NCBI GenBank assembly: GCA_965199855.1
Contig: OZ241326.1
Coordinates: 992,001-1,056,000 of the forward strand
DNA length: 64,000 bases
Direction of reading: 5' to 3'
DNA from: a bacterium
GTDB lineage: Bacteria > UBA8248
Made by a program: the position numbers and the translations under genes
Notes under the pieces: generated by a model
What the model saw: the letters and a program-made list of their open reading frames with translations, nothing else
What the model was told of the DNA's origin: nothing
Database searches by the model: none
Shown: one piece after another, positions 1,054-57,064 of the stretch
How positions within the stretch are numbered: the stretch's first letter is position 1
Layout: every line of letters starts with the position of its first letter

Positions 1054-1201
1054 GGCGCGCATCCTCTGCGTTGACCCGAAGGAATGAATATAGGATTGCG
1101 GGTTTCGCGCGGTCAAGTCGCCGAATCCGCGCCGGCGGCCGCCCCGAAGCGGGGACGAGGGAGGCGGGAAGGCCCCGAATTCTCCCGGTCCCGCGCCCGT
1201 C

Positions 1202-1231
1202 TTGACACCCGCGCCGCGCCCCTGCTAGGTT
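1202..1231 (+). promoter_or_regulatory. Putative sigma70 promoter for the DUF35/CoA-transferase genes
   Basis: TTGACA at 1202-1207, 18-nt spacer, TGcTAGGTT extended -10-like element, in the divergent intergenic region. Confidence 0.45.
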
Positions 1232-8595: not shown

Positions 8596-8743
8596 TCCCG
8601 TTCGCCCCCCGGTTTGGATGCGCCCGCGCGCGGCTTTTCGTCTGGTTCCAAAAGGCGACTTTACCCGATGCGGGCGGTTTTTGGTAGGCCGGCCCGCGCT
8701 TCCGCCCGCGGGTTTTGGGAGTTTTCCGCCGCGCCATTCAAAG

Positions 8744-8910
8744 TTATTCATATTTATGCCTGAAATCTTCATAACAAAATTCCTTATTCAGCTTTGCGGG
8801 ATAAGGAATGAACGAAAAGAGACTTTCGGGGAGGTGATTCTTGCAGGTCGACGTCGTTTTATTTATATTTGACGCGCGATTCTTAACAAGAAAATGCTTT
8901 ATTAAGTTTT
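8744..8910. promoter_or_regulatory. Two AT-rich pseudo-palindromic motifs upstream of fic (8744-8795 and 8879-8910)
   Basis: aatcttcataacaaaattccttattcagcttt vs attcttaacaagaaaatgctttattaagtttt, 24/32 identical by hand count. Confidence 0.55.
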
Positions 8911-16668: not shown

Positions 16669-16760
16669 CCCCGCTTGACGGAAGGGGGACGGGAGAGAGT
16701 ATGATGTTTGCCGTCCTTTCGCCCGCTTTGACTCTCAAAAGACAAAAGGGTTGATTCGGC

Positions 16761-33793: not shown

Positions 33794-34666
33794 ATGCCGC
33801 TTGAACACCCATACGTCCGAATCGCCAGCGTCGCGCCCGAGAAGCTGGACGCGAGGGAGGGCTGGGCGGTCTCCGACTTTCGGGTGATCATCAGCGGGCG
33901 GGAGGGCTGCTCCTCCATCATGTATCACGCCACCCTCCTGCCCGGGGACGTCCACCACAAGCACCGCTACGAGAACTGCGACATGCAGTATTACGTCGTG
34001 AGCGGCCACGGCCTGGCGGGAGCGGGGGCGGACCGCGTCGAGGTGCACGCGGGCCACTTCCATCTCATCCCGAAGGGCGTGGAGCACTGGCTCGTCAACC
34101 TGGGCAGGCACGACCCACTCGTCATCATCGGGTTCTACGACCGGGTTCCTCATCTGAAGGACGCGGGCCGCGTCTATCTGGGCGAGGTGGGCGAGGCCGA
34201 CCTCGCCGCGCCCCGGACGCTCCGGGCGGCGGGGCTGGAGTGCCCCCTCGTCCACAACGACGAAGTGCCCTTCGTCAAGGTGTCGAAGGAGGAGGGTTGG
34301 ACGCAGGATTACTTCAACGAGCCGCTCAACCGCAGCCACGGCGCGGGGACGTGCTGGATGCAGGGCTACTTCGGCCCCGGCACCGTCCACATGAAGCACC
34401 GCCACAACCGCTGCGAGGAAATATGCTACATCCTGAAAGGCCATGGACTGGCCGGCGTGGGGGCGGATCGCGCCGAAGTGTTCGCCGGAGACGTCCACTA
34501 CATCCCCGCCGCCACGGAGCACTGGCTCGCGAACATCAGCGAGACGGAGGATCTCTCCGCCCCCGGCTGGTATATCGGCGTCGGCGGGCTCGACGAGAGC
34601 GGCTTCGAGTATCTGGGGCCGGTGACGGAAGCCGACCTCAAGGAGCGAACCGGGGCGATCGAATAG
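33794..34666 (+). CDS. Bicupin protein (paralog 1)
   Basis: Two cupin domains: HHKHRYENCDMQYY...IPKGVEHW and HMKHRHNRCEEICY...IPAATEHW. Confidence 0.85.
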   Translation: MPLEHPYVRIASVAPEKLDAREGWAVSDFRVIISGREGCSSIMYHATLLPGDVHHKHRYENCDMQYYVVSGHGLAGAGADRVEVHAGHFHLIPKGVEHWLVNLGRHDPLVIIGFYDRVPHLKDAGRVYLGEVGEADLAAPRTLRAAGLECPLVHNDEVPFVKVSKEEGWTQDYFNEPLNRSHGAGTCWMQGYFGPGTVHMKHRHNRCEEICYILKGHGLAGVGADRAEVFAGDVHYIPAATEHWLANISETEDLSAPGWYIGVGGLDESGFEYLGPVTEADLKERTGAIE

Positions 34667-34809
34667 CCGATTGGCGAGGCGCGCCATGGCCCTCGGCGAA
34701 AGGCGCGGCCGCGGGCGATGAAAGGGAGCGAACTGAAAAAGAGGGGAGCGTCCGGCGGATAAGGCCGCCGCCCGGCGAATCCGCTCTCCGACTCGACTTT
34801 GTTGCGAGA

Positions 34810-35673
34810 ATGAATATGGCGCTTCAATACCCGCTGGTTCATATCGACGACGCGGCCCCCGAGCGGATGGAGAAGAAGGAGGGCTGGGCGATCTCGGAGT
34901 TCCGCCTGCCCATCACCGGCGCCTGCGGAAGCTCGACGACCGCCTTTCACTCCGTTTTCCGGCCCGGCTCCACGCACGCGAAGCACCTGCACGCCGAGTG
35001 CGAGGAGATCGCCGTTTATCTCAAGGGAAACGGCGTGGTGGGCCAAGGAGATGAGCGCGCCGGGGTGCGGGCGGGCCACTGCCGGCTCATGCCGAGGGGA
35101 TCGACGCACTTCTTCTACAACGAGACGAAGGACGAGGAGGCGGTGGTGGTCGGATTCTATCTCGGCGCCCCGGGCGTGGAGGAGACGGGCTATCGCTTCT
35201 GCGGCGAGGTGACGCGGGAAGACCTCGACATGCCGCGCGGGGGGCTGACCGAGGGCGTCCTCGTCCATCTCGACGACGTTCCGCGCGAGCGCATGAACGA
35301 GGAGGAGGGCTGGTCGATCACCGACTTCCGCCTCCCCCTGAGCCGGCGCAACGGGAGCGCGACGACGCTGTTTCGCGCGAGGTTCTTCCCCGGCGCGGTG
35401 CACAGGAAGCACAGGCACGACAACTGCGAGGAGATCTACTACGTCATCAGCGGCCGCGGGCTGGCGGGGGCGGGGACGGATCGCGTCGAGGTGCGCGGCG
35501 GACACTTCCACTACATCCCCAAGGGGGTGGAGCACTGGCTCCACAACCTGAGCGGGACGGAGCCCATCGAGGCGGTGGGCGTCTATATCGGAAGCGGGAG
35601 CGTGGAGGAGACGGGCTACGTCTATATGGGAGACGTGACGGAAGAAGACTTGCGGGAGCGCACGCCGCTCTAG
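34810..35673 (+). CDS. Bicupin protein (paralog 2)
   Basis: HAKHLHAECEEI...PRGSTHF and HRKHRHDNCEEIYY...IPKGVEHW. Confidence 0.85.
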   Translation: MNMALQYPLVHIDDAAPERMEKKEGWAISEFRLPITGACGSSTTAFHSVFRPGSTHAKHLHAECEEIAVYLKGNGVVGQGDERAGVRAGHCRLMPRGSTHFFYNETKDEEAVVVGFYLGAPGVEETGYRFCGEVTREDLDMPRGGLTEGVLVHLDDVPRERMNEEEGWSITDFRLPLSRRNGSATTLFRARFFPGAVHRKHRHDNCEEIYYVISGRGLAGAGTDRVEVRGGHFHYIPKGVEHWLHNLSGTEPIEAVGVYIGSGSVEETGYVYMGDVTEEDLRERTPL

Positions 35674-37276: not shown

Positions 37277-38536
37277 CTATTCATCGGGCCCGAAATCGAA
37301 CGCGAGTTTTCCGTGCGCGGCGCGCAGGGCGGCCTCCGCCTCCTCGGGCCGCCGCCCCTTGGCGAAGATGAAGCCGAGATACCTGTCCCCCTCCGGCAGG
37401 GGCGTCACGCGGCCGCCGACGCGGATGGAGATCTCGATTCTCTCTACGCCGGGGACGGCGAGCGCCTCCGCCTCGCCGCGGACGCCCCTCAAAACGCCCC
37501 CGGCGGGAATGGGAATCATCATCACGCCCGAGGCGGCCTCCTCCCGCTCCAGGGAGGGCGGCGCGACGCCCAGCGCCTGGGACAATATGAGATGCTCGAG
37601 CGCGAGGCCGCCTCCGAATGAGAGGGCGCCCGAGCATTTCCCGCCGATGGATCGGCTCGCGGCGTCGATCACCCATACCTCGCCCGCGTCGTCGATTCGC
37701 AGCTCGGCGTGAAGCGGGCCCTCCCGCAGGCGAATCGCCCGGGCGGCGCGAACCGTCTCTTTGCGGATTTTGGCCTGCGTCTCATCGGGCAGCCGCGAGG
37801 GCGTGACGTAAATCGTTTCCTCAAAGAAGGGCCCCTCGAGCGGATCGGGCTTGTCGAAGATGGCGAGAACGTGAACCTCGCCCCGTATGACGAGTCCCTC
37901 CACCGCCGCCTCGACGCCCGGCAGGTAATCCTCCACCAGAATCATCCGCGCCTCCTCCCCGCCCCGGGCGAGGGTCTCCGGCTCCTCCAGGATGGCGGCG
38001 ACGCGGCGGTAGGCCTGGGCGAACTCCGCCTCGTCGTTCGCGCGAATCACGCCCCGGCTGGCCGAGAGAAACGTGGGCTTGAGCACGCAGGGGTAGCGGA
38101 CGGACGCCGCGATTCTCTCCGGCGCCTCCTGGGCGGAGACGAGACGGAAGGCGGGCGAGGGGAGGCCCTCCTCGGCGAGCGTTTTTCTGAGCTCGTATTT
38201 GCTTCTCGTGGCGCGGGCGGCCTCGACGGGGTGAAAGGGCAGGCCGAGCGACTCCGCCGCCATGGCCCCCAGGATGAGGGCGTCGTCGTCCACCGGCGCG
38301 ATAGCGTGGAGGGGAAACGACTTTGCGAACGATTCGATGAGGGCGGCGCCCGCCTCGGGGCGCGCGTAGTCCAGGGCGAGGGCGGCGCCCGTGTTCAGGT
38401 CGGCGAGAACATCCGGCCTGTCGGTTCCCACCGTAAGGAGCAACCCCATCTCCTCGGCCGCCGTCACGTAGGCGGAGGCGCGGTAGGTCGCCGTCGTCAT
38501 CAGGAGGAGGACGCGCTTCGCTTCCTCAGGCGGCAT
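37277..38536 (-). CDS. ATP-grasp domain protein
   Basis: YPCVLKPTFLSASRGVIR, VEDYLPGVEAAVEG, IFDKPDPLEGPFFEETIYVTPS, GDRYLGF. Confidence 0.9.
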   Translation of the reverse strand: MPPEEAKRVLLLMTTATYRASAYVTAAEEMGLLLTVGTDRPDVLADLNTGAALALDYARPEAGAALIESFAKSFPLHAIAPVDDDALILGAMAAESLGLPFHPVEAARATRSKYELRKTLAEEGLPSPAFRLVSAQEAPERIAASVRYPCVLKPTFLSASRGVIRANDEAEFAQAYRRVAAILEEPETLARGGEEARMILVEDYLPGVEAAVEGLVIRGEVHVLAIFDKPDPLEGPFFEETIYVTPSRLPDETQAKIRKETVRAARAIRLREGPLHAELRIDDAGEVWVIDAASRSIGGKCSGALSFGGGLALEHLILSQALGVAPPSLEREEAASGVMMIPIPAGGVLRGVRGEAEALAVPGVERIEISIRVGGRVTPLPEGDRYLGFIFAKGRRPEEAEAALRAAHGKLAFDFGPDE

Positions 38537-39305
38537 ACCATCCGCCGTCCACGAGGAGCGACGCGCCGGTGACCAGGCTGCTGGCGCTCGAGGCGAGGAA
38601 TATGGCCGGGCCGACGATCTCCTCCATCCGCCCGAAGCGCCCCATAGGCGTTCTCGCGCAGATGGCGTCGTGGATGAGCGCGTCCTCCTTGAGGGCGGCG
38701 GTGAGCGGCGTTTCGATGAAGGTGGGGCAGATGGCGTTCACCTGGATGTTCTCCTTCGCCCACTCGGAGGCGAACACGCGGGTGAGGCCGATGAGGCCGC
38801 TTTTCGAGGACGTGTAGGGCCCGTAGGTCTGCCCCCGGGGGTTTCGGAAGACCGACCAGCCCATGAGCGAGGCGACGTTGATCACCTTGCCGCCGCCCGC
38901 CTTCTTCATCTCCTCGCCCGCGCGCCGCGTGACGAAGAAGATGCTCTTGAGGTTCAGGTCGAGCACCCTGTCCCAGTCGTCCTCGGTCAGATCGGCGAGC
39001 GTCTTGCGCACGTTCGTGCCCGCGTTGTTCACCAGGATGGTGAGTCCGCCCAGCGCGTCCGCCGCCTCCTCCACCATGCGCTCGGCGTCCTCCGCCTCGG
39101 TCACGTCCGCCTGGATGAGCGCGCACTTGCGGCCCGCCTTCTCGATGGCCGCCTTCGCCTCCCCGGCGGGGGCGAGGTCGATGTCAGCGACGGCGACGTC
39201 CGCGCCGGCGGCGGCGAGACCCTCGGCCAGCGTTCGCCCGATGCCGCGCGCCGCGCCCGTGACGAGCGCCTTGCCCCCGCTCAGATCGAAAAGAGATTGG
39301 CTCAT
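38526..39305 (-). CDS. SDR oxidoreductase (gluconate 5-dehydrogenase-like)
   Basis: TGAARGIG, NNAG, YTSSK, NAICP, VDGGW. Confidence 0.93.
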   Translation of the reverse strand: MSQSLFDLSGGKALVTGAARGIGRTLAEGLAAAGADVAVADIDLAPAGEAKAAIEKAGRKCALIQADVTEAEDAERMVEEAADALGGLTILVNNAGTNVRKTLADLTEDDWDRVLDLNLKSIFFVTRRAGEEMKKAGGGKVINVASLMGWSVFRNPRGQTYGPYTSSKSGLIGLTRVFASEWAKENIQVNAICPTFIETPLTAALKEDALIHDAICARTPMGRFGRMEEIVGPAIFLASSASSLVTGASLLVDGGWYAA

Positions 39306-39490
39306 GCGTGGATTCTCCTTGGCTGGAATACAGGGTCCTCCCGATTCTCTCCGCGCGGGCGTCTTCGGTCAACGGGAGCGGGCGATCTCGCTTGCCTTTC
39401 GGGGCGAGTGTGGTAAGCAGTGGGAAACGCTTCTCTCTTTTTTCGCCTGTCCCGCGCGGGGGCGGTCGCGGCTCGCATGGGCGAGGGTGA

Positions 39491-41143
39491 ATGATGGCGG
39501 AAGCCCGGAAAAACGGCGCGGGAAAAGAGCGTCCCCTCCGCCCGGCGGCCTACAATTCGGGCAAGCCGGTGCCGGTGGTCTATGGGCCGGACGCCCCGGA
39601 CGCGGCCTATCGGGAGAAGCTCGGCGCGCCGGGAGAATACCCCTACACGCGCGGCATCTACCCCACCATGTATCGCGGCTCCCTGTGGGCGATGCGGCAG
39701 TATGCGGGCTTTTCCACTTCGGCGGACACCAACGCGCGCTTCCGCTTTCTGCTCGAAAACGGCCAGACGGGCCTCTCGATGGCCTACGACCTCCCCACCC
39801 AGCTGGGTCTCGACTCCGACGACGAGGCGGCCCGGGACGACGCGGGACGCCTGGGGGTCGCCGTGGACACCGCCGAGGACATGGCCGCCGTCTTCGAGGG
39901 CATTCCGCTGGACCGGGTGAGCGTCTCGCACACCATCAACTCCACCGCCGCCGTCATGGCGGCGTTCTGGCTGCTCGCCGCCGAGGCGCAGGGAGTCGCG
40001 CGGGAGAAGCTGCGCGGAACCTTTCAGAACGACATGCTCAAGGAATACATCGGCAGAGGAACCTGGATATTCCCGCCCCGCCCCTCCATGCGGCTCGTGG
40101 CCGACCTCATCGAATACAACGCGAGGCATTGCCCGCGCGTCAACGCCGTCAGCGTGTCCGCCACCCACATCGCCGAGACGGGCGCCACCCTCGCCCAGGA
40201 CGTGGCCTTTCCCCTCCTGAACGCCCTGGCCTACATCCGCGAGCTCGCCGCGCGCGGCCTCCACGTGGACGACTTCGTCCCCACCATGTCGTTCCATCTC
40301 TCCGTGGGGGGCGGGGTGGGGCCGTTCAACCTCTTCGAGTCGATCGGCAAGCTGCGGGCGGCGCGGCGCATCTGGGCGCGGACGATGAAGGAGAAATACG
40401 GCGCGAAGAATCCAAAGACCATGCAGCTCAGATTCTCGACGGGCAACTGCGGCAGCCGCATGGCGGCGCGCGAGCCGCTGAACAACATCGTGCGCCAGAC
40501 GCTCTTCACCTTGGCCGCCGTGCTGGGAGGCACGCGCTCGGTCAACATGGCCTGCTTCGACGAGGCGTTCGAGATTCCCTCGGAGGAGTCCATCCGCACG
40601 GCGCTGCGCATCCAGCAGGTGATCGCCCACGAGAGCGGCGTGGCCGACACCGTGGATCCCCTGGCGGGCAGCTACGCCCTGGAGTCGGTGACGGATCAGG
40701 TGGAGGAGGAGATTCAGGCCATCGTGGACGACTACGAGTCTCGCGGCGGCATCGTTCCCTTCATCGAGAGCGGCGAGATTCAGAGGCTTCTGGCGCGCCA
40801 GGCCTATGAGCACCAGCGCAGGATAGCGTCCGGCGAGCAGGCGTGGGTGGGCGTCAACAAATTCGCCTCCGGGGAGGACGACCGCATGAGCGAGGGCGAG
40901 GGTCTCCACGAGGCGGACGCTTCCGTCCTGGAGCGGCAGAGGGCGCGGCTGGAGGAGGCGAAGGCCGCCCGCGACCCGGCGGAGGTCGAGGCGCGGCTCG
41001 AAAAGCTGCGGCGGGCGTGCGAATCGGGCGAGAACCTGATGCCCGTCTTGATCGAGGCCGCCCGCGCGCGCCTCACGGTGGGCGAGATGACGGACGTGAT
41101 GCGCGGCGTCTTCGGCGCCTACGCCGAGCCGTCGGTGGTTTGA
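39491..41143 (+). CDS. B12-dependent acyl-CoA mutase, substrate-binding large subunit (methylmalonyl-CoA mutase family)
   Basis: PGEYPYTRGIYPTMY, MRQYAGF, GLSMAYDLPTQLG, QNDMLKE, KLRAARRIW, DTVDPLAGSY. Confidence 0.93.
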   Translation: MMAEARKNGAGKERPLRPAAYNSGKPVPVVYGPDAPDAAYREKLGAPGEYPYTRGIYPTMYRGSLWAMRQYAGFSTSADTNARFRFLLENGQTGLSMAYDLPTQLGLDSDDEAARDDAGRLGVAVDTAEDMAAVFEGIPLDRVSVSHTINSTAAVMAAFWLLAAEAQGVAREKLRGTFQNDMLKEYIGRGTWIFPPRPSMRLVADLIEYNARHCPRVNAVSVSATHIAETGATLAQDVAFPLLNALAYIRELAARGLHVDDFVPTMSFHLSVGGGVGPFNLFESIGKLRAARRIWARTMKEKYGAKNPKTMQLRFSTGNCGSRMAAREPLNNIVRQTLFTLAAVLGGTRSVNMACFDEAFEIPSEESIRTALRIQQVIAHESGVADTVDPLAGSYALESVTDQVEEEIQAIVDDYESRGGIVPFIESGEIQRLLARQAYEHQRRIASGEQAWVGVNKFASGEDDRMSEGEGLHEADASVLERQRARLEEAKAARDPAEVEARLEKLRRACESGENLMPVLIEAARARLTVGEMTDVMRGVFGAYAEPSVV

Positions 41144-41173
41144 CGGGGAGCGCGGCGGGGACGGGAGCCTGCG

Positions 41174-41599
41174 ATGAAGAGCGGAAGACGCATCCGCGTG
41201 CTGATGGCGAAGCCGGGCCTGGACGGGCACGACAGGGGGGTGAAGGTCGTCATCCACGCGCTCAGGGACGCCGGCATGGAGGTGATCTACTCGGGCCTCA
41301 GGCAGACGGTGGAGCAGATCGCGGCCGTCGCGGCCCAGGAGAACGTGGACGTGATAGGTCTGAGCGTGCTCTCGGGCTCCTACATGGGAATCGCGCGCAG
41401 GATGGCGGAGCGGATGCGGGAGGCGGGCCTCGAGGACTGCCTTCTCATTTTGGGCGGCAACATTCTGGCGCGCCACGTGGAGGAGCTCAGGGTCCTGGGC
41501 GTGGCCGAGGTTTTCAACCACCACGCGGACATGGCGGAGGTCGTCTCATACATCCGCGAGAACGCGGGCCGCGCCCGGGGGCGCCCCCCCGCCTTTTGA
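41174..41599 (+). CDS. Cobalamin-binding small subunit of the acyl-CoA mutase
   Basis: KPGLDGHDRG (DxHxxG), GLSVLSG, GG. Confidence 0.94.
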   Translation: MKSGRRIRVLMAKPGLDGHDRGVKVVIHALRDAGMEVIYSGLRQTVEQIAAVAAQENVDVIGLSVLSGSYMGIARRMAERMREAGLEDCLLILGGNILARHVEELRVLGVAEVFNHHADMAEVVSYIRENAGRARGRPPAF

Positions 41600-41610
41600 A
41601 GGGGGAGATT

Positions 41611-42804
41611 TTGGAAAAACCGCTCGAGGGCGTCCGCATCCTCGACCTTTCCGCCCTGCTCGCCGGCCCCTACGGCAGCATGGTGCTGGCCGATCTGGGC
41701 GCGGACGTCATCAAGATAGAAGCGCCGGGGCGGGGCGACCTCGTCCGCACCATGCCCCCGCACTACGTGGGGGAGACGAGCGCCTACTTCATCGCCCTGA
41801 ACAGGAACAAGCGGGGCGTGTCCCTGAACCTGAAGGACGAAGAGGGCTATCGCGTCTTCCGCGAGCTGGTGAGGCGCTCGGACGTCGTCTACGACAACTA
41901 CCGCCCCGGCGTTCTCGAGCGGCTGGGGGCGGACTACGAGACGCTCAGGCGGGCGAACCCCCGCATCATCAGCGCTTCCGTCACCGGCTACGGACTCACC
42001 GGCCCGCAGAAGGACAAGCCCGCCCTCGACCTCATCATCCAGGGGCGCGGCGGCATCATGAGCTTCACCGGCGAGCCGGGCAGGCCGCCCGTGCGCCTGG
42101 GCGCGCCCATGGGGGACATCGGCGGCGGCCTGTTCGCCGCCCACGGGATTCTCGCGGCGCTCTACAGGCGCGAGCGGACGGGCGTCGGCCAGAAGGTGGA
42201 CGTCTCGCTCCTGGACTGCCAGCTGTATCTCTCCAGCTACCGCGCGCAGTATTATCTGACGGCGGGCGAGGTGGCGAAGCCCATGGGCACGGGCCACGCC
42301 TCCGCCGTTCCCATCGGCGCGTATCGATGCGGCGACGGCAGATGGCTCGTGCTCGACGCGATTCTGGATCATTTCTTCCAGGGCCTCTGCGACGCTCTGG
42401 ATCATCCCGAATGGAAGGACGACCCCCGGATGAAGGATCGCCCGGCGCGCCTCGAGAACCGCGAATACGTGGACGCGAAGCTCGCCGAGGCGTTCGGGAC
42501 GGACTCCGCGGCGCGCTGGATAGAGAAAATCGAGGCGCGCGGCGTTCCCTGCGGGCCGATTCAGGGCATCGACGAGGCGCTGAACGACCCCCAGACGCGG
42601 GCGCGCGAGATGGTGGTGGAGATGGCGCACCCCGAGCTCGGCGCGATGGAGACCTTCAACACGCCGGTCAAGATGGAGGGCACCTGGGGGGCGGCTCCCT
42701 CGCCGCCTCCCCTCATGGGCGAGCACACCGCGGAGGTGCTCCGGGAGACGCTTGACCTGAATGATGAGGACATCGCGCGGCTCAAAGAGCGCGGGGCGAT
42801 TTGA
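41611..42804 (+). CDS. Class III CoA-transferase
   Basis: LGADVIKIE, NRNKRG, DNYRPG, PMGDIGGG (catalytic Asp), GEHT. Confidence 0.93.
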   Translation: MEKPLEGVRILDLSALLAGPYGSMVLADLGADVIKIEAPGRGDLVRTMPPHYVGETSAYFIALNRNKRGVSLNLKDEEGYRVFRELVRRSDVVYDNYRPGVLERLGADYETLRRANPRIISASVTGYGLTGPQKDKPALDLIIQGRGGIMSFTGEPGRPPVRLGAPMGDIGGGLFAAHGILAALYRRERTGVGQKVDVSLLDCQLYLSSYRAQYYLTAGEVAKPMGTGHASAVPIGAYRCGDGRWLVLDAILDHFFQGLCDALDHPEWKDDPRMKDRPARLENREYVDAKLAEAFGTDSAARWIEKIEARGVPCGPIQGIDEALNDPQTRAREMVVEMAHPELGAMETFNTPVKMEGTWGAAPSPPPLMGEHTAEVLRETLDLNDEDIARLKERGAI

Positions 42805-43601
42805 GGGGCGTCGTGTTCCGGGACAGGAAGGCTTTCGTGTTCGACCTGGAAGGGGTGTTCTTCGCCGGAGGCGAGGTGATGCCCGGCGGCCGGGAGCTGA
42901 TGCGCGCCCTCAAGGAAAGAGACCTTCCACGACGCTTCATCACGAACATCAGCCGCAGCACGGCGGCCGAGGTTCGCGCCCACATGGCGGGGCTCGGCGT
43001 TGACCCTGGCGAGAACCTCATCGTGAGCGCGCTCGACCGCGTCGGGGCTTTTTTGAGAAAGACCTGCGGGTCGGGCCGCGCCTACGTGCTGGGGACGGAC
43101 GCGCTCAAGAGCGCCGCCGCCTCGGGCGGCTTCGAGGCGGTGGGCGAGGACGAGGCGGAGAGCGCCGACGTCGTCCTGGTCGGCCTGGACGAGCGCCTCA
43201 CCTACCGCACGCTGAGCGCAGCCGCCCGGGCGGTGAGCCGAGGGGCGCGCTTCGTCGCCATGAACCCCGACGTGCGCCTGCCGCGCGAGGACGGCTCGTT
43301 CTCCCTCGGCGGCGGCGCCATCGTGGCGGCCGTGCGTGCGGCGGCGGGCAGGGAGCCTGTGTTCTTCGGGAAGCCCGAGCCCTTTCTGTTCGAGGAGGCG
43401 CTGGCGGAGCTGGGCGTGGAGGGGCGCGAGGCCGTCATGGTGGGCGACAACCTGAGAACCGACATCGCGGGCGGCAGAGACATGGGAATGGCCACCGTCT
43501 GGGTGAACCGCTGGGGAGCGATAGCGGGAGATCCGGACGCGCCGGCGGATCTCGAGGTGAAGCGGGTCGATGAACTGATTCCGCATCTGCCGGGCGGATG
43601 A
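42801..43601 (+). CDS. HAD-IIA hydrolase (NagD-like)
   Basis: FDLEGV, FITN, NPD, GKPE, VGDNLRTDIAGG. Confidence 0.88.
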   Translation: MRGVVFRDRKAFVFDLEGVFFAGGEVMPGGRELMRALKERDLPRRFITNISRSTAAEVRAHMAGLGVDPGENLIVSALDRVGAFLRKTCGSGRAYVLGTDALKSAAASGGFEAVGEDEAESADVVLVGLDERLTYRTLSAAARAVSRGARFVAMNPDVRLPREDGSFSLGGGAIVAAVRAAAGREPVFFGKPEPFLFEEALAELGVEGREAVMVGDNLRTDIAGGRDMGMATVWVNRWGAIAGDPDAPADLEVKRVDELIPHLPGG

Positions 43602-43623
43602 CGGCGCGGGAGAGAGAAGAGGC

Positions 43624-43883
43624 GTGGAGCGGATTCCGCATGAAGTGAGGGACAGGCTGGCCTCCATCACGCTGGCCAGGCCGGAAAAGAAAACGCGATC
43701 AACCGAGGGATGACCGCGCGCGCTTCCGCGCTTTTCGCCGAAGTCGAGCGCGACCCCGAGGCTTGGGGCTGTCTCATCACGGGCGCAGGGGACGTGATTG
43801 TGAAGCGTCTCCTCAATGCCGGGGACGCCGCCAAGGGCGTCCGGGCGTTCAAGGAGAGGAGTCCGCCCCGCTTCCAGGGCAGG
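43624..43883 (+). pseudogene. Enoyl-CoA hydratase/crotonase remnant (frameshift plus large internal deletion)
   Basis: EVRDRLASITLARPEKK[-1]NAINRGM...ERDPEAWGCLITGAGD joined directly to the C-terminal DAAKGVRAFKERSPPRFQGR. Confidence 0.75.
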
Positions 43884-43937
43884 CCAGGATGCTTCCGTCC
43901 TCCCCCGCTCCATCCATTTCCGGCAAAGGAGACCCCG

Positions 43938-45098
43938 GTGAATTTCGACCTCACGGATTCCCAGAAGCGGATTCAGCAGAAGGCTCGCGAGGTCGCCGCG
44001 CGAGAGATAGCGCCCAAGGCGGCGCTTTGGGATCGCACCGAAGAATACCCTTGGGAGAACGTCCGAATCCTCGCGGAGGCGGGCTTCATGGGCATGAACG
44101 TTCCCGGGGAATATGGCGGGCCGGAGCGTCCGCTCATCGAGGCCGTCCTGGTGGTCGAGGAGATGGCGAAGGTCTGCGGCATCACGGGGCGCATCGTTGT
44201 GGACGCCAATATGGGGGTGGTGGGGGCCATCGTCCGCTACGGAACCGAGGCGCAGAAGAGGAAGTATCTGCCCATGGTGATCGAAGGGGACAAGCCCGCC
44301 ATCGCCATCACCGAACCCGAGGCGGGGAGCGCCGCCACCGACATGACGACGCGCGCCGCGCTCGACGGCGGCGAATACGTCCTGAACGGAAGGAAGAAGT
44401 GGATCACCGGCGCGGGCGTCTCCCGCGTCAACCTCGTGTTCGCCCGCGTCGTCCATGGAGGAGAGGAGCAGGGAATCGGCGCTCTCATCGTAGAGCTGGG
44501 CGCCGAGGGCTTCCGCGTCGGGGAGCGCGCCTGGATGATGGGCTTGAGGGGAATCCCCGAAGGGGAGGAAATTTTCGAGAACTGCCGCGTGCCCGCGGAA
44601 AACCTGGTGACGGTGGGCTTCGGGCGCCTCATGGCCGCCTACAACGCCCAGCGGGTGGGCGCGGGGACGGTGGCTTTAGGCATCGCCGAGGGCGCCTTCG
44701 CGCAGGCGGTGGCGTACGCCGGCGAGCGCGAGCAGTTCGGCCGCCCGATTGCGGAGTTTCAGGGGCTTCAGTGGATGCTGGCGGACGCGCGCATCCAGCT
44801 CGACGCCGCGCGGCTCCTGCTCCATCGCGCGGCGGTTCGGCAGGACCCGAAAACGGGGTTTCCCGACGTGAGCCTGGCCGCCATCGCCAAGACGTTCTCG
44901 GCGGAGGCCGCGATCCGGGTGACGAACGACGCCCTCCAGATTTTCGGCGCGGCGGGCTACGCGCGCGATCTGCCGCTCGAGCGCATGGCGCGCGACGCGC
45001 GGATGTTCACCATCGGCGGCGGCACCACCCAGGCGCAACGCAACGTCATCGCCTCGGGCATCTTCGGCAGAAAATTCTCGCAGCGCCGCGGCGGGTAG
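43938..45098 (+). CDS. Acyl-CoA dehydrogenase-fold protein, 3-sulfinopropionyl-CoA desulfinase (AcdA)-like
   Basis: AAGGAG RBS plus GTG; GRIVVDANMG, GDKPAIAITEPEAGSAA, MGLRGIPE, AYNAQRVGAG, RMFTIGGGT; both usual catalytic Glu positions are absent. Confidence 0.8.
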   Translation: MNFDLTDSQKRIQQKAREVAAREIAPKAALWDRTEEYPWENVRILAEAGFMGMNVPGEYGGPERPLIEAVLVVEEMAKVCGITGRIVVDANMGVVGAIVRYGTEAQKRKYLPMVIEGDKPAIAITEPEAGSAATDMTTRAALDGGEYVLNGRKKWITGAGVSRVNLVFARVVHGGEEQGIGALIVELGAEGFRVGERAWMMGLRGIPEGEEIFENCRVPAENLVTVGFGRLMAAYNAQRVGAGTVALGIAEGAFAQAVAYAGEREQFGRPIAEFQGLQWMLADARIQLDAARLLLHRAAVRQDPKTGFPDVSLAAIAKTFSAEAAIRVTNDALQIFGAAGYARDLPLERMARDARMFTIGGGTTQAQRNVIASGIFGRKFSQRRGG

Positions 45099-45149
45099 GC
45101 GTCCCTTCGGAGCGCCTTCTTTCTGGGGCGGAGCGGCGGGCGGCGGCCT

Positions 45150-46370
45150 CTAGCCGTATTGGAGGATCATGCCCGTCAGACCGCATTCGATGCAGCCGGC
45201 CACCTCGATGCAGCGCGAGTTCGCGGGCGGCATCACCACGCCGGTGATGCCCTCGCGGTAGAACCGCTCAAAGGGATAGCGCCGCGCGATGGAGCGTCCC
45301 CCCACGAGCCGCATCGCGCGCTGCACCGCCTTGGCGCAAATTTCGCAGGAGACGTATTTCGACTGCATGACGGTCTTCACCGTGTTCTGGTTCGCCATGC
45401 CGTCGCCCTGCTCCTTCACGTGGCACGCCTCGTAGAGAAGCATCCGCGCGGCGCGAAGCTCGGCGCTCAGCTCGCCTATCGCGCTCTGGTAGAGCTCGTT
45501 GTGGCTCAGGGGCTCCGGGTTGGGCGCGTATTTCGTCGTCCTCACGTAGTCCACCAGGTGCCCGTAGGCGCCCTCCGCGATGCCCAGATAGGCGGCGGAA
45601 AACCCGAGGTGAAACATGGTGATGTCGATCTTCCCCAGTGCGCCGATGAAGTTCTCTCCGCCCAGGATGTCCTCGTCCGGCACGAAGGCGTCCTCGAAGA
45701 GGATGTCGTCGCTCGCCGTTCCGCGCATCGACATGGTGTCCCACACCACCTCCACCGACGCCCCGGGCGCGTCCTTGCGTATGACGGCGGTCATGATGGC
45801 TTCGCCGGCGGTTTTCTTTCCCGCCAGGAAGCCGGTGGTGAAGTAGTAGTCGGCGTGCTCGCCCACCGAGGCGGAAATCTTCCTTCCGTTCAGGCGATAG
45901 CCGCCCTCGACGGGGGTGAAGATGCTCTTGAGCGTCACCAGGTGGCGGAAGCTCATGCCCCGCTCCGCCGTGACGGAGGAGAAGAGCTTGCCGTTTTCGG
46001 TGACGTCGGGAAGCACCCGCTTTTTCTGCTCTTCGTTCGCCAGGGCGAAGAAGAGGCTCACGCAGGTCTGGTGCATGTTCCAGGTGAGGGCGGTGGAGGC
46101 GCACGCCTTGCCCAGTTCGTGGAGCGCCATGTTGTAGGTGAGGGAGTTCGCGCCCGCCCCGCCCCATTCCTCGGGGATGCACACGGCGTTCAGGCCCGCC
46201 TCGTTGAGCAACTGGAAGTTTTCGACGGGGAAGCGCCCCTCTCGGTCGATCTCGGCCGCCAGCTCGGCGATCCGCGGCGTCAGGGACTTCACCTTGTCCA
46301 GGATTTCCCTGTCGTATTTCAGCTCCATCAGCGTTTCGTAGGATTCACTCGCCGCGGCATCGGAACCCAT
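45150..46370 (-). CDS. Acyl-CoA dehydrogenase family protein (divergent)
   Basis: IPEEWGGAG, ASTALTWNMH, LNGRKISAS, WDTMSMRGTASDD, FERFYRE. Confidence 0.88.
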   Translation of the reverse strand: MGSDAAASESYETLMELKYDREILDKVKSLTPRIAELAAEIDREGRFPVENFQLLNEAGLNAVCIPEEWGGAGANSLTYNMALHELGKACASTALTWNMHQTCVSLFFALANEEQKKRVLPDVTENGKLFSSVTAERGMSFRHLVTLKSIFTPVEGGYRLNGRKISASVGEHADYYFTTGFLAGKKTAGEAIMTAVIRKDAPGASVEVVWDTMSMRGTASDDILFEDAFVPDEDILGGENFIGALGKIDITMFHLGFSAAYLGIAEGAYGHLVDYVRTTKYAPNPEPLSHNELYQSAIGELSAELRAARMLLYEACHVKEQGDGMANQNTVKTVMQSKYVSCEICAKAVQRAMRLVGGRSIARRYPFERFYREGITGVVMPPANSRCIEVAGCIECGLTGMILQYG

Positions 46371-46475
46371 CGCATCCCCTCCCCGCGTCAAAGAGAAAAT
46401 CAGTTCGTTTCGGCCGCGCGGCGTCCTTTCCCGCCGGGAGAGGAAGGATCGATTCTCCCGAAAGCGCCTTTTCGT

Positions 46476-46504
46476 TTGACAGCGCACTGTCACAGAATTA
46501 TAAG
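46476..46504 (+). promoter_or_regulatory. Putative promoter with an overlapping palindrome TGACAG-cgca-CTGTCA
   Basis: TTGACA (46476-46481), 17 nt, TATAAG; inverted repeat at 46477-46492. Confidence 0.5.
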
Positions 46505-46573
46505 GGAAAATTAAGCAAAAAGATAAGATCGGTTTTTTGTTGAGCGCCGCGGCGAGGGAAGCGATTGCCTGTT

Positions 46574-47584
46574 ATGAGCAAAATCGACAGTCTTTTGAAC
46601 ACCATTCAATGCGGTGATTCAACGCTGATATTGAAAACCATCCCCGACGACAGTATAGACCTCGTTGTTACCTCGCCTCCGTATTACATGCAGAGAGATT
46701 ACAACGATATGGGGCTCGGGACGGGGCATGAGAGCGCAGTCGATAAATACATCGATTCACTGCTCGAAACATTCGAGGAAGTGATACGGGTCCTGAAATC
46801 GACCGGAAACATCATTTACAACATCGGCGACAAGTATATCGGCAGTTCGCTTTTGCTTGTCCCGTATAGATTCGCCATAAGCGCGACAAGGCGGTATCCG
46901 ATTCGTCTCATCAACGATATAACGTGGGTGAAGCGAAACCCGACGCCCCGCCAGTTTGCCCGCCGATTGGTCAGCGGCACCGAGCCGTTCTTTCATTTTG
47001 CCAAAGGGTCGGACTACTATTACGATTTGGAAAATTTCCTTAAGTGTGAAGATAAGGACAAACGCCCCGCTCCGACCGGTCGGATGGGGGAGCGGTACAG
47101 ATCGTTGATAGCGCAGTCGAACCTGTCTGACGCCCAGAAGCGAAGGGCGAACGAGTCTTTGGACAACGCCATTCGGGAGGTGACGCGCGGGGAAATTCAG
47201 AGTTTTCGCATGAAGATCAAGGGAATACACGCGGAGGCTTTTGGCGGCCAGGAAGGCGGCAGGAAACTGCAAATGGACAACAACGGCTTCACTATAATCA
47301 GAATACATGGAAAAAAGATGAAAAAAGACGTCATCGATTCGCCGGTGGAGTCGATTCCCGGAATGAGGCATACGGCGATATTCCCTCTTTCAATTATACG
47401 AGAGCTCGTCAAATTGCTTTCCCCGATGGAGGGGGTCGTCTTGGACCCCTATATTGGAAGCGGAACTACCGCCATTGCCGCGCTGGAGGAAGGCCGTGAT
47501 TACATAGGAATCGACATAGATTCTCACTATTGCGGTCTCGTCCTCGACAGAATAGAGAAATGCAAAAAGAAAAGCGCTTGTTAG
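46574..47584 (+). CDS. Beta-class DNA methyltransferase (probably m4C) of a type II R-M system
   Basis: VTSPPY, HTAIFP, VLDPYIGSGTT; low GC. Confidence 0.92.
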   Translation: MSKIDSLLNTIQCGDSTLILKTIPDDSIDLVVTSPPYYMQRDYNDMGLGTGHESAVDKYIDSLLETFEEVIRVLKSTGNIIYNIGDKYIGSSLLLVPYRFAISATRRYPIRLINDITWVKRNPTPRQFARRLVSGTEPFFHFAKGSDYYYDLENFLKCEDKDKRPAPTGRMGERYRSLIAQSNLSDAQKRRANESLDNAIREVTRGEIQSFRMKIKGIHAEAFGGQEGGRKLQMDNNGFTIIRIHGKKMKKDVIDSPVESIPGMRHTAIFPLSIIRELVKLLSPMEGVVLDPYIGSGTTAIAALEEGRDYIGIDIDSHYCGLVLDRIEKCKKKSAC

Positions 47585-48687
47585 AGCATTTGTTTCGGGA
47601 GTCCGCGACCGATCCCCCGGAAAGCGGTTTGCGGCCTGGGATGCTTGAACAGCGGCCGCTGCTCGACCTGATAGTGGACAGTGCCTGCCGCGGGAGAAAC
47701 AAGGCCGCTCTGGCCGTGACTATTACGTTGCTCTTACGAAAGGCGACTCACCCCAAGCAGGATATTCGTCTTCATCAGGCTGGAATGGAGAATGGGTTTT
47801 CTGGCAGAGGTCTGGATGAAAGGGTTGTAACTCCGTTTTTGAGAGAGCAGAGCTTTCCATTCATGGGATCGGGTTCCGGATGGCTGACAAGATCGTTTGA
47901 GCAGGCGCATCCTTACAATCTCGATTATCCCGGCAAAATAACTCCCGTGGCGTTAAGAGATGCTTTCCTGAACGTCATCAACGAAGTGGAAAAGGAAAAG
48001 CATTTTGATTTTGCATCGGATCATTTGCGGTACGTCTTCTGTCGATTGAGGAAATGGCGCGAACAAAACTCTGCTCTCAAGTTGGCGAAGCCTACGAACA
48101 GGCGCATTGAAGAGATCATAGCCCTCGTCAAAAAGCATTGGGACAGTGAGTTGCCCGGAGTCGCCAAGCTCCCCGTTCTGGCCGTTTATGCGGTGTATGA
48201 ATGCCTGATTTCAGAAGTTTCGAGATACAGAGATTGTCGGTTGCGCGATTTGCTCCCTCATACCGCCGCCGATGCCAGGACAGAACGACTGGGTGATGTC
48301 GATATCGAAAGCCGCGTTGATGGAGGCGCAATCGAGGCCATCGAGATCAAGCATGGATTGACCATCAATGCTTCCTTGATAAGAACCCTGCGGGACAAAA
48401 TCGCGAAAGCGGGAGTAAAGCGTTTTTATATTCTAAGCACCAGGGAGGACATAGACTCGAATGATCTGACGGAAATGACGAATATGCTGATTGACATCAG
48501 AAGGAATTACGGGTGCCAAGTTATACTGAATGGAGTATCGAACAGCATAAAATACTATCTTCGCCTGCTGTCCGATACCGACAGGTTTTTAATCAACTAC
48601 GTCTCCATGGTTGAGGCAGACGCGGATATCCCTTTCACCTTGAAAAGCCGGTGGAATGAAATCATCGACTCGCATCAAGAGAGTTAG
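47560..48687 (+). CDS. Putative type II restriction endonuclease (PD-(D/E)xK)
   Basis: Overlaps the MTase end; GDVDI...AIEIKH motif; low GC. Confidence 0.72.
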   Translation: MQKEKRLLEHLFRESATDPPESGLRPGMLEQRPLLDLIVDSACRGRNKAALAVTITLLLRKATHPKQDIRLHQAGMENGFSGRGLDERVVTPFLREQSFPFMGSGSGWLTRSFEQAHPYNLDYPGKITPVALRDAFLNVINEVEKEKHFDFASDHLRYVFCRLRKWREQNSALKLAKPTNRRIEEIIALVKKHWDSELPGVAKLPVLAVYAVYECLISEVSRYRDCRLRDLLPHTAADARTERLGDVDIESRVDGGAIEAIEIKHGLTINASLIRTLRDKIAKAGVKRFYILSTREDIDSNDLTEMTNMLIDIRRNYGCQVILNGVSNSIKYYLRLLSDTDRFLINYVSMVEADADIPFTLKSRWNEIIDSHQES

Positions 48688-55141: not shown

Positions 55142-55885
55142 TCACTTCCAGCCCGACGGCCCGAAAATCAGAAGGGCGAGCCCCGCCGCCGTCATCAGCG
55201 CGAGGCCGCCCGCGTAGCCGAGAGCGGGCGGGAGGCGTCCGCGCAGCAGCCTCCCCGCGGCAAAACCGGCGAGGGCGGGCGGAACGCACGCGGCCGAGCG
55301 CGCGGCTTCGGCTATGCCCAGCGCGCCCGCGCCGCCCAGCGCGGCCACCTGAACGACGGCGAACGCCAGCGCGCTCGCGCAGACGAGCCGCATCATCCGG
55401 GCGCGGCCGACGCCCGCGCTGTCGAGGTAGATGACGCTCAAGGGGCCTCCGGAGAAGGAAAAGCCGCTCAGGCCGCCGGCGAAAAAGCCGGCGAGCCATG
55501 TGAAGAAGGCCTCGTCCCGCGTGTCGAGCTGGATTCTTCGGCGCGAGAGGGCGTGAGCGGCGAAAAGGAGCGCGAGCGCGCCCACCGACCACTTGAGGAA
55601 CGTGGGCGGACTCGAAACGAGAATCAGGACGCCCAGCGCCGCCCCCGCCGCGCCCGCGCCGAGAAAGGGCGCGAGGCGCCTGAGCGAGGCGGCGGGAACC
55701 CCGCCGCCGGCGGCGCGAACGCCCAGCAGGACGAGATTCGGAAGCGAGAGGGCGAGCACGGAATCGCGCACGCCGAGGATGGCGCCGAGCGCGGGCGCGG
55801 CCATGAGGCCGAAGTCGAAGCCCGCCGCGCCCTCCATGAGCCCCGCGGCGAAGACGAGAAGCGCGATGTCCCAGGATGGCCACAT
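55142..55885 (-). CDS. TauE/SafE family sulfite exporter-like membrane protein
   Basis: About 8 hydrophobic helices; G..GFDFGL..P and GFFAGGLSG..GGP repeats. Confidence 0.75.
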   Translation of the reverse strand: MWPSWDIALLVFAAGLMEGAAGFDFGLMAAPALGAILGVRDSVLALSLPNLVLLGVRAAGGGVPAASLRRLAPFLGAGAAGAALGVLILVSSPPTFLKWSVGALALLFAAHALSRRRIQLDTRDEAFFTWLAGFFAGGLSGFSFSGGPLSVIYLDSAGVGRARMMRLVCASALAFAVVQVAALGGAGALGIAEAARSAACVPPALAGFAAGRLLRGRLPPALGYAGGLALMTAAGLALLIFGPSGWK

Positions 55886-55903
55886 GGGTTGAGCCGCGTC
55901 CGG

Positions 55904-56887
55904 CTACAGGTTCAGCAGGGCCCGGACGTTTCCGTGCGAGACGTTCTCGTATTCCTCCCGGCTCAGCCCCGATTGTTCGAGCGTCTCGACCGCTTGGACG
56001 TCCGTCATGTCGTAGGGCAGGTCCGTCCCCAGTAGCACCCTGTCTCCGCCCATCACGTCCACCAGGAACCGCACGACGGGCGGGTGGAACACCAGCATGT
56101 CCAGATAGAAGTTCTCTCTCAGGTAATCGAGCGGCGGGCGCGGGACGCTCCCGCACTCGGGCCGCACCTTCCAGCCGTGCGCGAAGCGGCCGATGAGGTA
56201 GGGGACGACTCCCCCGCCGTGCAGGAAGATGAAGCGCAGGTTCGGCAGCCGCTCGAACAGGCCGGAGAAGATCAGGCGGCCGATGCAGTTCGCGCTCTCC
56301 GTGGGGAATCCGACAAGGTTGAACAGGTGGTAGTCCCTCATCCGCTCCATGCCCGCCGGGTTCGCCGGATGGACGATGAGGGGAACGTCCAGGGCGGCGG
56401 CCGCCTCGTAGAGGGAATAGAAGCTCTCATGGTCGAGATAGCGGCCGTTCACGTTCGTGCCGAGGAAGCCGCCCTTGAGCCCCAGCTGCCCCACGGCGCG
56501 CTCGAGCTCTCTCACCGAACGGGAGATGCTCTGCGCGGGCAGGGCGGCTAGGGCGTGAAATTTGTCGGGATGCTCTTCGATGATGCGGGCGTAAGCGTCG
56601 TTCGCCGCCTGCGAGAGCTCCTCGCCCAGACCCTCGTCCGCCCAATACACGCCCGGGTTCGAGGAGAAGGAGAGGACGTTCATGTCCAGCCTCATCTCCT
56701 CCATCGTCCGGAGCCTGCGCTCGACGTTGACGAAAGGCTCGATGGGCGGGTGCATCGCGCCCTTGATGTCCACGCGGCGCGCCCCCTCCTCGTCCGTGAA
56801 CAGCCGGACGCCGTAGCGCGGGCCCTCCTTCCCCAGCAGGTCGAAGTATTCTTCCGGGTAAATGTGGCAATGGGCGTCAATGTGCAT
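55904..56887 (-). CDS. Amidohydrolase_2 family protein (ACMSD-like decarboxylase/hydratase)
   Basis: IDAHCH, VHP, HGGG..PY..GR, GTDLPYD. Confidence 0.9.
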   Translation of the reverse strand: MHIDAHCHIYPEEYFDLLGKEGPRYGVRLFTDEEGARRVDIKGAMHPPIEPFVNVERRLRTMEEMRLDMNVLSFSSNPGVYWADEGLGEELSQAANDAYARIIEEHPDKFHALAALPAQSISRSVRELERAVGQLGLKGGFLGTNVNGRYLDHESFYSLYEAAAALDVPLIVHPANPAGMERMRDYHLFNLVGFPTESANCIGRLIFSGLFERLPNLRFIFLHGGGVVPYLIGRFAHGWKVRPECGSVPRPPLDYLRENFYLDMLVFHPPVVRFLVDVMGGDRVLLGTDLPYDMTDVQAVETLEQSGLSREEYENVSHGNVRALLNL

Positions 56888-57064
56888 TCCGGGCGCTCTC
56901 CATGGTGCGGCGGGTCGAGCCGGATGGTTAGCATCCGCCGCCGGGCGGTGTCAACGAAGGGCGGCGCGCCCGCGCTCCTCCTCGCGCGTGAAAGGCGCGC
57001 GGCGCGGCCCGGTTTTCGGACGCCGGGAGAAGTTCGAGAGGCTCGGCCGCAAGACGAAGAAGAA

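Follow-up and report, generated by a model that had tools for sequence, protein, structure and literature searches.

In Escherichia coli, the succinate-to-propionate operon sbm has the gene order scpA-argK-scpB-scpC. A mutase, a coenzyme A (CoA)-transferase of class III and an acyl-CoA dehydrogenase (ACAD) act in one pathway on substituted succinyl-CoA in the IaaGH/IaaL/IaaF cluster of Aromatoleum (PMC8360864). The closest known desulfinases of the ACAD fold are AcdDPN7 of Advenella mimigardefordensis (structures 5af7 and 5ahs) and AcdA of Variovorax paradoxus TBEA6, and the desulfinase is described as lacking the catalytic glutamate (PMC9293079). The Advenella gene belongs to a cluster of a LysR regulator, a family III CoA-transferase, Acd and Mdo (PMC5373536), which is reported beside propionyl-CoA (methylcitrate) catabolic genes in an organism whose succinyl-CoA synthetase accepts 3-sulfinopropionate (PMC5373536, PMC6370202); in Variovorax, acdA and act carry consecutive locus tags (PMC6370202). 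Here, a stretch of 64,000 nucleotides from a bacterium of the lineage UBA8248 (the window; contig OZ241326.1, positions 992,001 to 1,056,000) was analyzed, in which the large and small subunits of a B12-dependent mutase, a class III CoA-transferase, a haloacid dehalogenase (HAD)-type hydrolase, a crotonase remnant and a desulfinase-like ACAD follow each other at 39491-45098, all on the + strand, as a reading made from the letters alone (the sequence-only reading) had described. The comparison points to two evolutionarily separable modules of known type lying side by side, a methylmalonyl-CoA pathway unit (unit A) and a genus-specific desulfinase-like unit (unit B), and we give this reading a probability of about 0.58.

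Unit A (39491-43601) consists of a split adenosylcobalamin-type mutase, a dedicated class III transferase and a HAD-IIA hydrolase. The mutase would interconvert (R)-methylmalonyl-CoA and succinyl-CoA, the transferase would exchange CoA between a donor, succinyl-CoA or propionyl-CoA, and a (di)carboxylate of small size, and the unit as a whole is predicted to be a propionate/succinate module of the methylmalonyl-CoA pathway. Unit B (43579-46493) consists of a decayed crotonase gene, an AcdA-family enzyme that would form propionyl-CoA and sulfite by hydrolysis of 3-sulfinopropionyl-CoA or of a closely similar compound, and a second, divergent gene of the ACAD fold. Any cooperation of the two units would run through the ordinary intermediates propionyl-CoA and succinyl-CoA and not through a new B12 reaction. 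The substrates and activities given here are predicted from gene identities, residue states, clade membership, synteny and phyletic patterns.

Linkage of the units was analyzed in 15 species-level relatives (kin; 87 to 92% identity), which bear the database labels Nitrospinota, Nitrospinaceae or "bacterium". All 15 kin loci had the order mutL-mutS-transferase, and the ACAD was present in 11, beyond the contig end in three and absent despite full coverage in one (L027). In a survey of 51 genomes of the phylum, in which absence from an incomplete genome means not found with the query used, a window-type mutase (at least 72% identity) was found in 28 genomes from five genera and the ACAD (E value of at most 1e-120) in 22, namely, 20 of the window genus, including the source genome, and one each of two other genera. 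The mutase unit was present and the ACAD was not found in G034 (99% complete). In G024, also 99% complete, the order was short-chain dehydrogenase/reductase (SDR)...HAD-ACAD-2-hydroxyacid dehydrogenase; mutL-mutS-transferase was lost at this locus and no window-type mutase was found genome-wide. The HAD gene was directly followed by ruvB in G039 and G038 (72% identity). The ACAD of G039 (58% identity) was located 2.9 Mb from the mutase unit, and that of G037 (77% identity) on another contig, beside a thiamine diphosphate (ThDP) enzyme and the second ACAD. The mutase was present with no ACAD match in G038, G010, G011, G013 and G041, and G033 showed crotonase-ACAD without the second ACAD gene. 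Mutase and ACAD are thus separable on the evidence of kin synteny, of the phyletic pattern and of the contexts of the ACAD family elsewhere; they were gained and lost independently among the 51 genomes, and the juxtaposition of units A and B arose within one genus.

The contexts elsewhere were provided by 80 metagenome loci with an ACAD 51 to 69% identical to that of the window. In 5 of the 51 loci with at least 1.3 kb of upstream sequence, a class III transferase lay directly upstream of the AcdA-like gene; counted at any position in the locus, such a transferase was present in 9 of 80. Among the 41 AcdA-like loci that extend for 3 kb or more on one side, a single one had a mutase, which was a canonical fused alpha/beta methylmalonyl-CoA mutase (MCM). 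In L121, a LysR gene and a transferase precede the ACAD, as in the Advenella cluster. As a separate observation, the AcdA-like genes of L115, L121 and L242 (the G037 locus) lie beside a ThDP-dependent enzyme of 536 to 547 amino acids (aa), and the run in L121 includes, in addition to LysR and the class III transferase, an aminotransferase. These three contexts hint that 3-sulfinopropionyl-CoA may be made there from an amino- or oxo-sulfinate.

The large (catalytic) subunit of the mutase (39491-41143, +, 550 aa) matched PF01642 with 592.8 bits and TIGR00641 with 600.2 bits (cut-off 303.8), and the small B12-binding subunit (41174-41599, +, 141 aa), which carries DGHDRG in agreement with the DxHxxG motif, matched PF02310 with 75.6 bits and TIGR00640 with 126.3 bits (cut-off 57.45). 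The small subunit follows the large one in every related locus with sequence there. Among PDB chains, HcmA (4r3u) scored 461.1 bits, human MCM 398.2 and Propionibacterium shermanii MCM 366.9; the first place of 4r3u is probably due to HcmA also being a split large subunit. Residues were numbered as in P. shermanii MCM (literature number = 1req_A chain index + 1, checked on Tyr89, Gln197, Arg207, Tyr243 and His244). In the alignment to 1req, 2xij and 4r3u, the window mutase keeps Tyr89, Gln197, Arg207, His244 and Glu370, shows the changes Tyr243Thr, His328Ser, Gln330Gly, Trp334Ser and Asn366Ala, and has a 5-residue insertion near Phe287. Tyr89, Gln197, Arg207 and His244 are taken by us to be the substrate-binding (carboxylate and thioester) set of MCM, and the roles of the other cavity residues are likewise assumed; a literature search on the roles of MCM cavity residues returned nothing relevant.

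At the signature sites 89/197/207/243/244/328/330/334/366/370, the window mutase reads YQRTHSGSAE. The pattern Y-Q-R-T-H-S-G-x-[A/P/G]-E, here called type T, was found in 141 of 203 aligned large subunits, which are the query, all of its 120 best database hits, the 15 kin loci and five deltaproteobacterial loci. In the same alignment, canonical split MCMs read Y-Q-R-Y-H-H-Q-x-N-E and isobutyryl-CoA mutase (ICM)-like sequences F-Q-Q-Y-H-H-Q-x-N-E. The deltaproteobacterial type-T members read YQRTHSGGAE and agree with the window mutase at nine of the ten sites. In a quick maximum-likelihood tree of 60 sequences, the type-T clade was split off with a Shimodaira-Hasegawa-like approximate likelihood ratio (SH-aLRT) support of 99.

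Compared with MCM (P. shermanii 1req, human 2xij, and split bacterial and archaeal forms), the window mutase thus shares the TIM-barrel large subunit, the DxHxxG small subunit, the substrate set and Glu370; it differs in Tyr243Thr, His328Ser, Gln330Gly, Trp334Ser, Asn366Ala and the insertion, and has no adjacent MeaB. Other known relatives are the 2-hydroxyisobutyryl-CoA mutase HcmA (4r3u) and the isobutyryl-CoA mutase IcmF (4xc6). At the positions of MCM Tyr89 and Arg207, HcmA has Ile and Gln, and unnamed sequences classed as ICM-like have Phe and Gln, the ICM hallmark. The window mutase has Tyr and Arg there, which does not fit the isobutyryl-, 2-hydroxyisobutyryl- or pivalyl-CoA type. Judged by its residues and by the gene contexts of its clade, it is most likely a methylmalonyl-CoA/succinyl-CoA mutase.

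The gene contexts of type-T mutases were analyzed elsewhere. Five loci with 54%-identical type-T mutases (L042 to L045 and L082) came from metagenome-assembled genomes (MAGs) labelled Syntrophobacterales, delta proteobacterium, Deltaproteobacteria and Proteobacteria, and four of them were annotated (L042, L043, L044 and L082). The order in L043 was mmdA-type carboxyltransferase (TIGR01117, 764 bits, below its cut-off), methylmalonyl-CoA epimerase (TIGR03081, 126.1 bits, cut-off 114.95), mutL, mutS, ScpC-type succinyl-CoA:acetate CoA-transferase (515.9 bits, cut-off 500) and the beta subunit of a Na+-translocating decarboxylase; the other three each carried part of this set by Pfam. By these assignments, the L043-type gene set is that of a textbook methylmalonyl-CoA pathway. 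It was also observed that L043 and L082 belong to the same Syntrophobacterales MAG, where a run of mutase, small subunit, ScpC and decarboxylase beta subunit is found on two contigs; with 54.113% and 52.206%, the tblastn identities to the window subunits are equal on both, so that the run may have been duplicated or repeated in the assembly.

In a sample of 401 genomes of Thermodesulfobacteriota, a type-T mutase was found in 14, and 12 loci were compared. A class III transferase 50 to 56% identical to that of the window lay directly beside mutL or mutS in 10 of the 12, and an mmdA-type carboxyltransferase and an epimerase were in the same run in three (L272, L273 and L275). The other neighbors included a PrpR-type regulator, PrpD, members of the isocitrate lyase/phosphoenolpyruvate mutase family, AcetylCoA_hydro-type transferases and Tct and TRAP (di/tri)carboxylate transporters. 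For all five of the Thermodesulfobacteriota transferases tested, the window transferase was the best match in its genome, with 402 to 448 bits compared to 320 to 364 for the next paralogue. Together, the identity and these best matches make the window transferase an orthologue of the mutase-linked transferases, and the combination of mutL, mutS and class III transferase is a conserved module that two phyla share, in contexts of propionate and succinate metabolism. In Thermodesulfobacteriota, the type-T clade appears from these neighborhoods to serve the methylmalonyl-CoA pathway.

The window transferase (41596 or 41611, a TTG with the start uncertain, to 42804, +) matched PF02515 with 442.9 bits over profile positions 1 to 366 of 366. 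Its best NCBIfam matches all scored about 286 bits, far below their cut-offs, and the best PDB match was SUGCT (9br7, 295 bits). It is probably a succinyl-CoA- or propionyl-CoA-dependent (di)carboxylate CoA-transferase. The Act-type transferase is of the same PF02515 family and likewise lies near a desulfinase-like gene; the comparison with it was made through the transferases adjacent to AcdA-like genes, not through an Act sequence itself. The window transferase was 35 to 39% identical to four such transferases, compared to 50 to 59% among those four, and ranked 5th to 6th of the 16 paralogues of its genome as a match to them. By this comparison, it belongs to the mutase and not to the desulfinase. 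As in the E. coli sbm operon, the B12 mutase of the locus has a CoA-transferase and, in the ancestral state, a crotonase-family gene in its cluster; its transferase is of a family different from ScpC. As an observation on the genome, its acyl-CoA toolkit is unusually large for 3.04 Mb, with 22 ACAD-like matches and 16 paralogues of the class III CoA-transferase. One of these paralogues, at about position 2604585, follows the single propionyl-CoA carboxylase (PCC)-type carboxyltransferase at a distance of about 2 kb.

The genome encodes two further mutase large subunits besides that of the window. One is canonical (PF01642, 734 bits) and lies alone beside alaS; a second free-standing small subunit, one MeaB and the PCC-type carboxyltransferase were also found elsewhere. 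No epimerase or carboxyltransferase is adjacent to the window mutase, the candidates for both lying elsewhere in the genome. With these predicted genes, the genome can complete the route from propionyl-CoA to succinyl-CoA without the window mutase. The sequence-only reading had proposed a check for a separate canonical MCM, epimerase and meaB: MCM and MeaB were found, and the epimerase candidate reached 101.1 bits, below the cut-off of 114.95. The presence of a separate canonical MCM does not make the window mutase exotic. The third large subunit, at 1449938-1451473 of the genome and outside the window, was noted for its signature YQRAHGVSCE (Tyr243Ala, His328Gly and Gln330Val); it adjoins an enoyl-CoA hydratase and an aldehyde:ferredoxin oxidoreductase and has no adjacent small subunit.

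The ACAD of unit B (43935-45098, +) starts with GTG at 43935 after the ribosome-binding site AAGGAG. Against NCBIfam, it matched NF042439 (3-sulfinopropanoyl-CoA desulfinase) with 549.1 bits, with 345.2 bits for the next family, and its best PDB chain over the full length was 5af7 (AcdDPN7) with 422.5 bits, with 275.4 bits for the next chain. The three-domain fold was recognized by PF02771, PF02770 and PF00441, all over their cut-offs. Of the 22 ACAD-like matches to NF042439 in the genome, none besides this ACAD scores more than 300 bits. When aligned to 5af7, the ACAD shows the following states: Arg84 is kept (TGRIVVD aligned to MGRITVD), Gln246 is kept (YNAQRV), Cys122 is replaced by Ala (PAIAITEP), the site of medium-chain acyl-CoA dehydrogenase (MCAD)-type Glu376 is Gly (TIGGGT), and there is no catalytic Glu at either canonical position, which bears out these residue states and the desulfinase-like character as they had been read from the letters. 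Arg84 is reportedly the key residue of AcdDPN7, and roles are also ascribed to Cys122 and Gln246. Across the query and its 120 best database relatives (60 to 98% identical, n = 121), Arg84 was found in 120 sequences with one gap, Gln246 in 121, and the Glu376 site was Gly in 119 and Ala in two. At position 122, 48 sequences had Val, 44 had Ala and 29 had Cys, and because of this variability the Cys122-to-Ala change is ordinary variation and not family-defining.

By its sequence, the ACAD is a close relative of the desulfinases in the AcdA/AcdDPN7 family, and the products of its reaction are most likely propionyl-CoA and sulfite, released by hydrolysis of 3-sulfinopropionyl-CoA or of a closely similar compound. 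It shares with AcdDPN7 and AcdA the ACAD fold, Arg84, Gln246 and the missing catalytic Glu. It differs from them in scoring below the equivalog cut-off, in Ala at position 122, in having no adjacent 3-mercaptopropionate dioxygenase or Act-type transferase, and in coming from a different phylum with the habitat label sponge metagenome. Compared with the ACAD of the Iaa cluster, it has no catalytic base and hence would not be a dehydrogenase. A search of the genome for CDO_I gave one weak match only (37.1 bits), distant from the ACAD. The upstream bicupin genes were considered as a thiol dioxygenase and rejected, with no CDO_I or NCBIfam match.

Several observations weigh against two separable modules of known type. 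Both units are adjacent in 11 of the 12 covered loci of the window genus (g1), and the ratio of nonsynonymous to synonymous substitutions (dN/dS) is 0.11 to 0.27 for all genes, including both ACADs, in comparison to three or four relatives (0.125 to 0.16 for the desulfinase-like ACAD compared to kin), which indicates purifying selection; the adjacency and the selection are compatible with some cooperation in g1. The ACAD falls short of the NF042439 equivalog cut-off of 600 bits, and the best epimerase-like gene of the genome stays below its own. The mutase differs from all structurally characterized mutases at Tyr243, His328, Gln330 and Asn366, a long stem (0.61) leads to the kin group inside the type-T clade, and the tree is a quick version whose members do not include named ethylmalonyl-CoA mutase (ECM), pivalyl-CoA mutase (PCM) or IaaG sequences. 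The equation of type T with MCM is drawn from gene context in two subclades only. Adjacency and selection would suit a single pathway in g1, in which the transferase activates 3-sulfinopropionate with succinyl-CoA or propionyl-CoA, the ACAD desulfinates the product to propionyl-CoA and sulfite, and carboxylation, epimerization and the mutase lead to succinyl-CoA and regenerate the CoA donor. 3-Sulfinopropionate is a succinate analogue that a succinate-type transferase might accept, and a PCC-type carboxyltransferase is present in the genome; in the Advenella and Variovorax precedents, the desulfinase genes lie near propionyl-CoA genes or consecutive to act, and succinyl-CoA synthetase takes 3-sulfinopropionate (PMC5373536, PMC6370202). 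Such a pathway is nevertheless unlikely, given the independent loss in G034 and G024 and the distance between the units in G039, the low identity and rank of the transferase as a match to AcdA-linked ones, the ACAD's own ribosome-binding site, and the decayed crotonase, variable spacers and one DDE transposase between HAD and ACAD. The single functional operon of the sequence-only reading does not agree with a mutase-linked type of transferase and with independent gain and loss; of the neighborhood conservation that it had proposed as a check, the adjacency within g1 stands, and separation or independent loss was found in G034, G024 and G039.

The substrates leave room for further alternatives. 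An ACAD acting on a different sulfinate or on a non-sulfur acyl-CoA would fit the score below 600 bits, the Ala at position 122, the weak and remote CDO-type match, the missing Act-type neighbor and the heterogeneous neighbors of the family (ThDP enzymes, aminotransferase, TauD and luciferase-like monooxygenases). This is distinctly unlikely in view of an Arg84 and Gln246 that are invariant or nearly so, a freely variable position 122, and scores that fall far lower for all other ACAD families and PDB chains. There is a slim chance that the type-T mutase with its class III transferase is a so far undescribed functional variant, with an altered substrate range or handling of the adenosyl cofactor, which in one sponge-associated genus would be coupled to a desulfinase, with the transferase activating 3-sulfinopropionate. 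Slimmer still is the chance that type-T mutases, or at least the kin subgroup, act on another substrate, such as a 2-substituted malonyl- or succinyl-CoA supplied by the class III transferase. Four cavity residues that are now small (Tyr243Thr, His328Ser, Gln330Gly and Asn366Ala/Pro/Gly), the insertion near Phe287, the long stem and the IaaGH/IaaL/IaaF precedent on substituted succinyl-CoA (PMC8360864) would favor it; the unchanged substrate-binding set and the epimerase, mmdA-type carboxyltransferase, ScpC and decarboxylase neighbors in two subclades argue for methylmalonyl-CoA. The sequence-only reading had put forward a new B12 reaction, in which the mutase isomerizes a branched sulfinyl-acyl-CoA, e.g., 2-sulfinopropionyl-CoA, to 3-sulfinopropionyl-CoA. 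Tyr89 and Arg207 could in principle bind a sulfinate, a canonical MCM is available elsewhere in the genome and the mutase and ACAD are adjacent in one genus, yet there is hardly any chance of such a reaction: the window mutase shares nine of ten cavity sites with members in methylmalonyl-CoA pathway clusters, its unit is older than the arrival of the ACAD and persists without it, and the single mutase in 41 AcdA-like loci is the canonical alpha/beta MCM. Two separable modules of known type thus remain the preferred reading of the locus.

A new B12-dependent organosulfinate rearrangement is not supported by comparative genomics and need not be pursued. With a desulfinase that is likely to release sulfite, this sponge-associated lineage adds to the picture of organosulfur use by sponge symbionts. 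The comparison also delineated an unnamed large clade of split mutases, not claimed as unpublished, in which four cavity residues are changed and a class III transferase is the conserved partner; the biochemistry of type T would reveal if an MCM can do without residues that are considered important near the adenosyl group. The locus further calls for caution with gene order, as a co-oriented run in a single genome can represent two recently joined modules.

Between the units, the HAD-IIA hydrolase gene (42801-43601, +; TIGR01460 140.2 bits, cut-off 100.15) begins with a TTG that overlaps the transferase stop. It follows the transferase in kin loci and was not found beside the mutL-mutS-transferase triads of Thermodesulfobacteriota; its conservation with the mutase unit is limited to the family of the window. 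The crotonase (enoyl-CoA hydratase) pseudogene remnant (43579-43934, +) shows an internal deletion and a frame change, with only N- and C-terminal pieces left. That it is a remnant, as had been supposed, was corroborated by an intact crotonase-like open reading frame (ORF) at the equivalent place in five of five ACAD-carrying relatives examined (L028, L029, L030, L034 and L037; 256 to 328 codons stop to stop). In these five, a spacer of varying length follows the crotonase before the ACAD, and the spacer of L034 holds the DDE transposase. The L028 copy belongs to the enoyl-CoA hydratase family, with generic enoyl-CoA hydratase models of NCBIfam all below their cut-offs and 3-hydroxypropionyl-CoA dehydratase 5zai as the best PDB match (156 bits). 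By analogy to sbm, methylmalonyl-CoA decarboxylase was considered and rejected (NF008506 132.8 bits, cut-off 257, with generic hydratase models scoring higher). The crotonase is the only decaying gene of the region.

The second, divergent ACAD-fold protein (Acyl-CoA_dh_2 type; 45150-46493, -) is encoded convergently with the ACAD. It showed weak matches to AcrC, SfnB and DszC, all far below cut-offs, and a best PDB match of 134 bits. Eleven kin loci and G037 have its gene next to the ACAD, whereas G033 and G024 are without it. On the other side, divergent from the mutase, an ATP-grasp gene (37277-38536, -) and an SDR gene (38526-39305, -), both assigned by Pfam, are conserved neighbors of unit A: of 22 related loci in the comparison, 18 had both and one had only the SDR gene, and in the three loci with neither, the sequence ends before that side.

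The window has a G+C content of 60 to 73% over most of its length, and the source genome is one contig of 3.04 Mb. An Rfam scan of the whole window at the gathering threshold gave no matches, and hence no cobalamin riboswitch was seen. A consensus scan of 39200-46700 gave one promoter-like and five terminator-like sites, no more than in shuffled sequences, and was uninformative on operon structure. Half or more of the sampled words of the region were found in runs labelled as sponge or marine metagenomes, from three of the nine studies listed, and none of the runs listed was of RNA.

A low-G+C island at 46565-48687 (0.536 over 46001-48000) carries an N6/N4 DNA methylase and a 385-aa ORF that matched neither Pfam nor NCBIfam. 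The closest relative, L027, has this pair immediately behind HAD, at the site taken in other kin by crotonase, ACAD and the second ACAD, and the other kin are without the pair. A second DNA methylase was located at 16755-17849. Overlapping cupin-domain ORFs in different frames were found at 33794-34666 and 34240-35673, with no NCBIfam match; the relatives have two separate bicupin genes there. A TauE/SafE-family sulfite-exporter-like gene lies beside an amidohydrolase at 55142-56950 (-), 10 kb downstream of the ACAD. Two very large subtilase-domain ORFs, which measure about 1057 and 935 aa from stop to stop and share 5980-6571, are located at 3398-8787 (-), and a gene for SelA (selenocysteine synthase) at 1-1224 (-) is cut by the window start.

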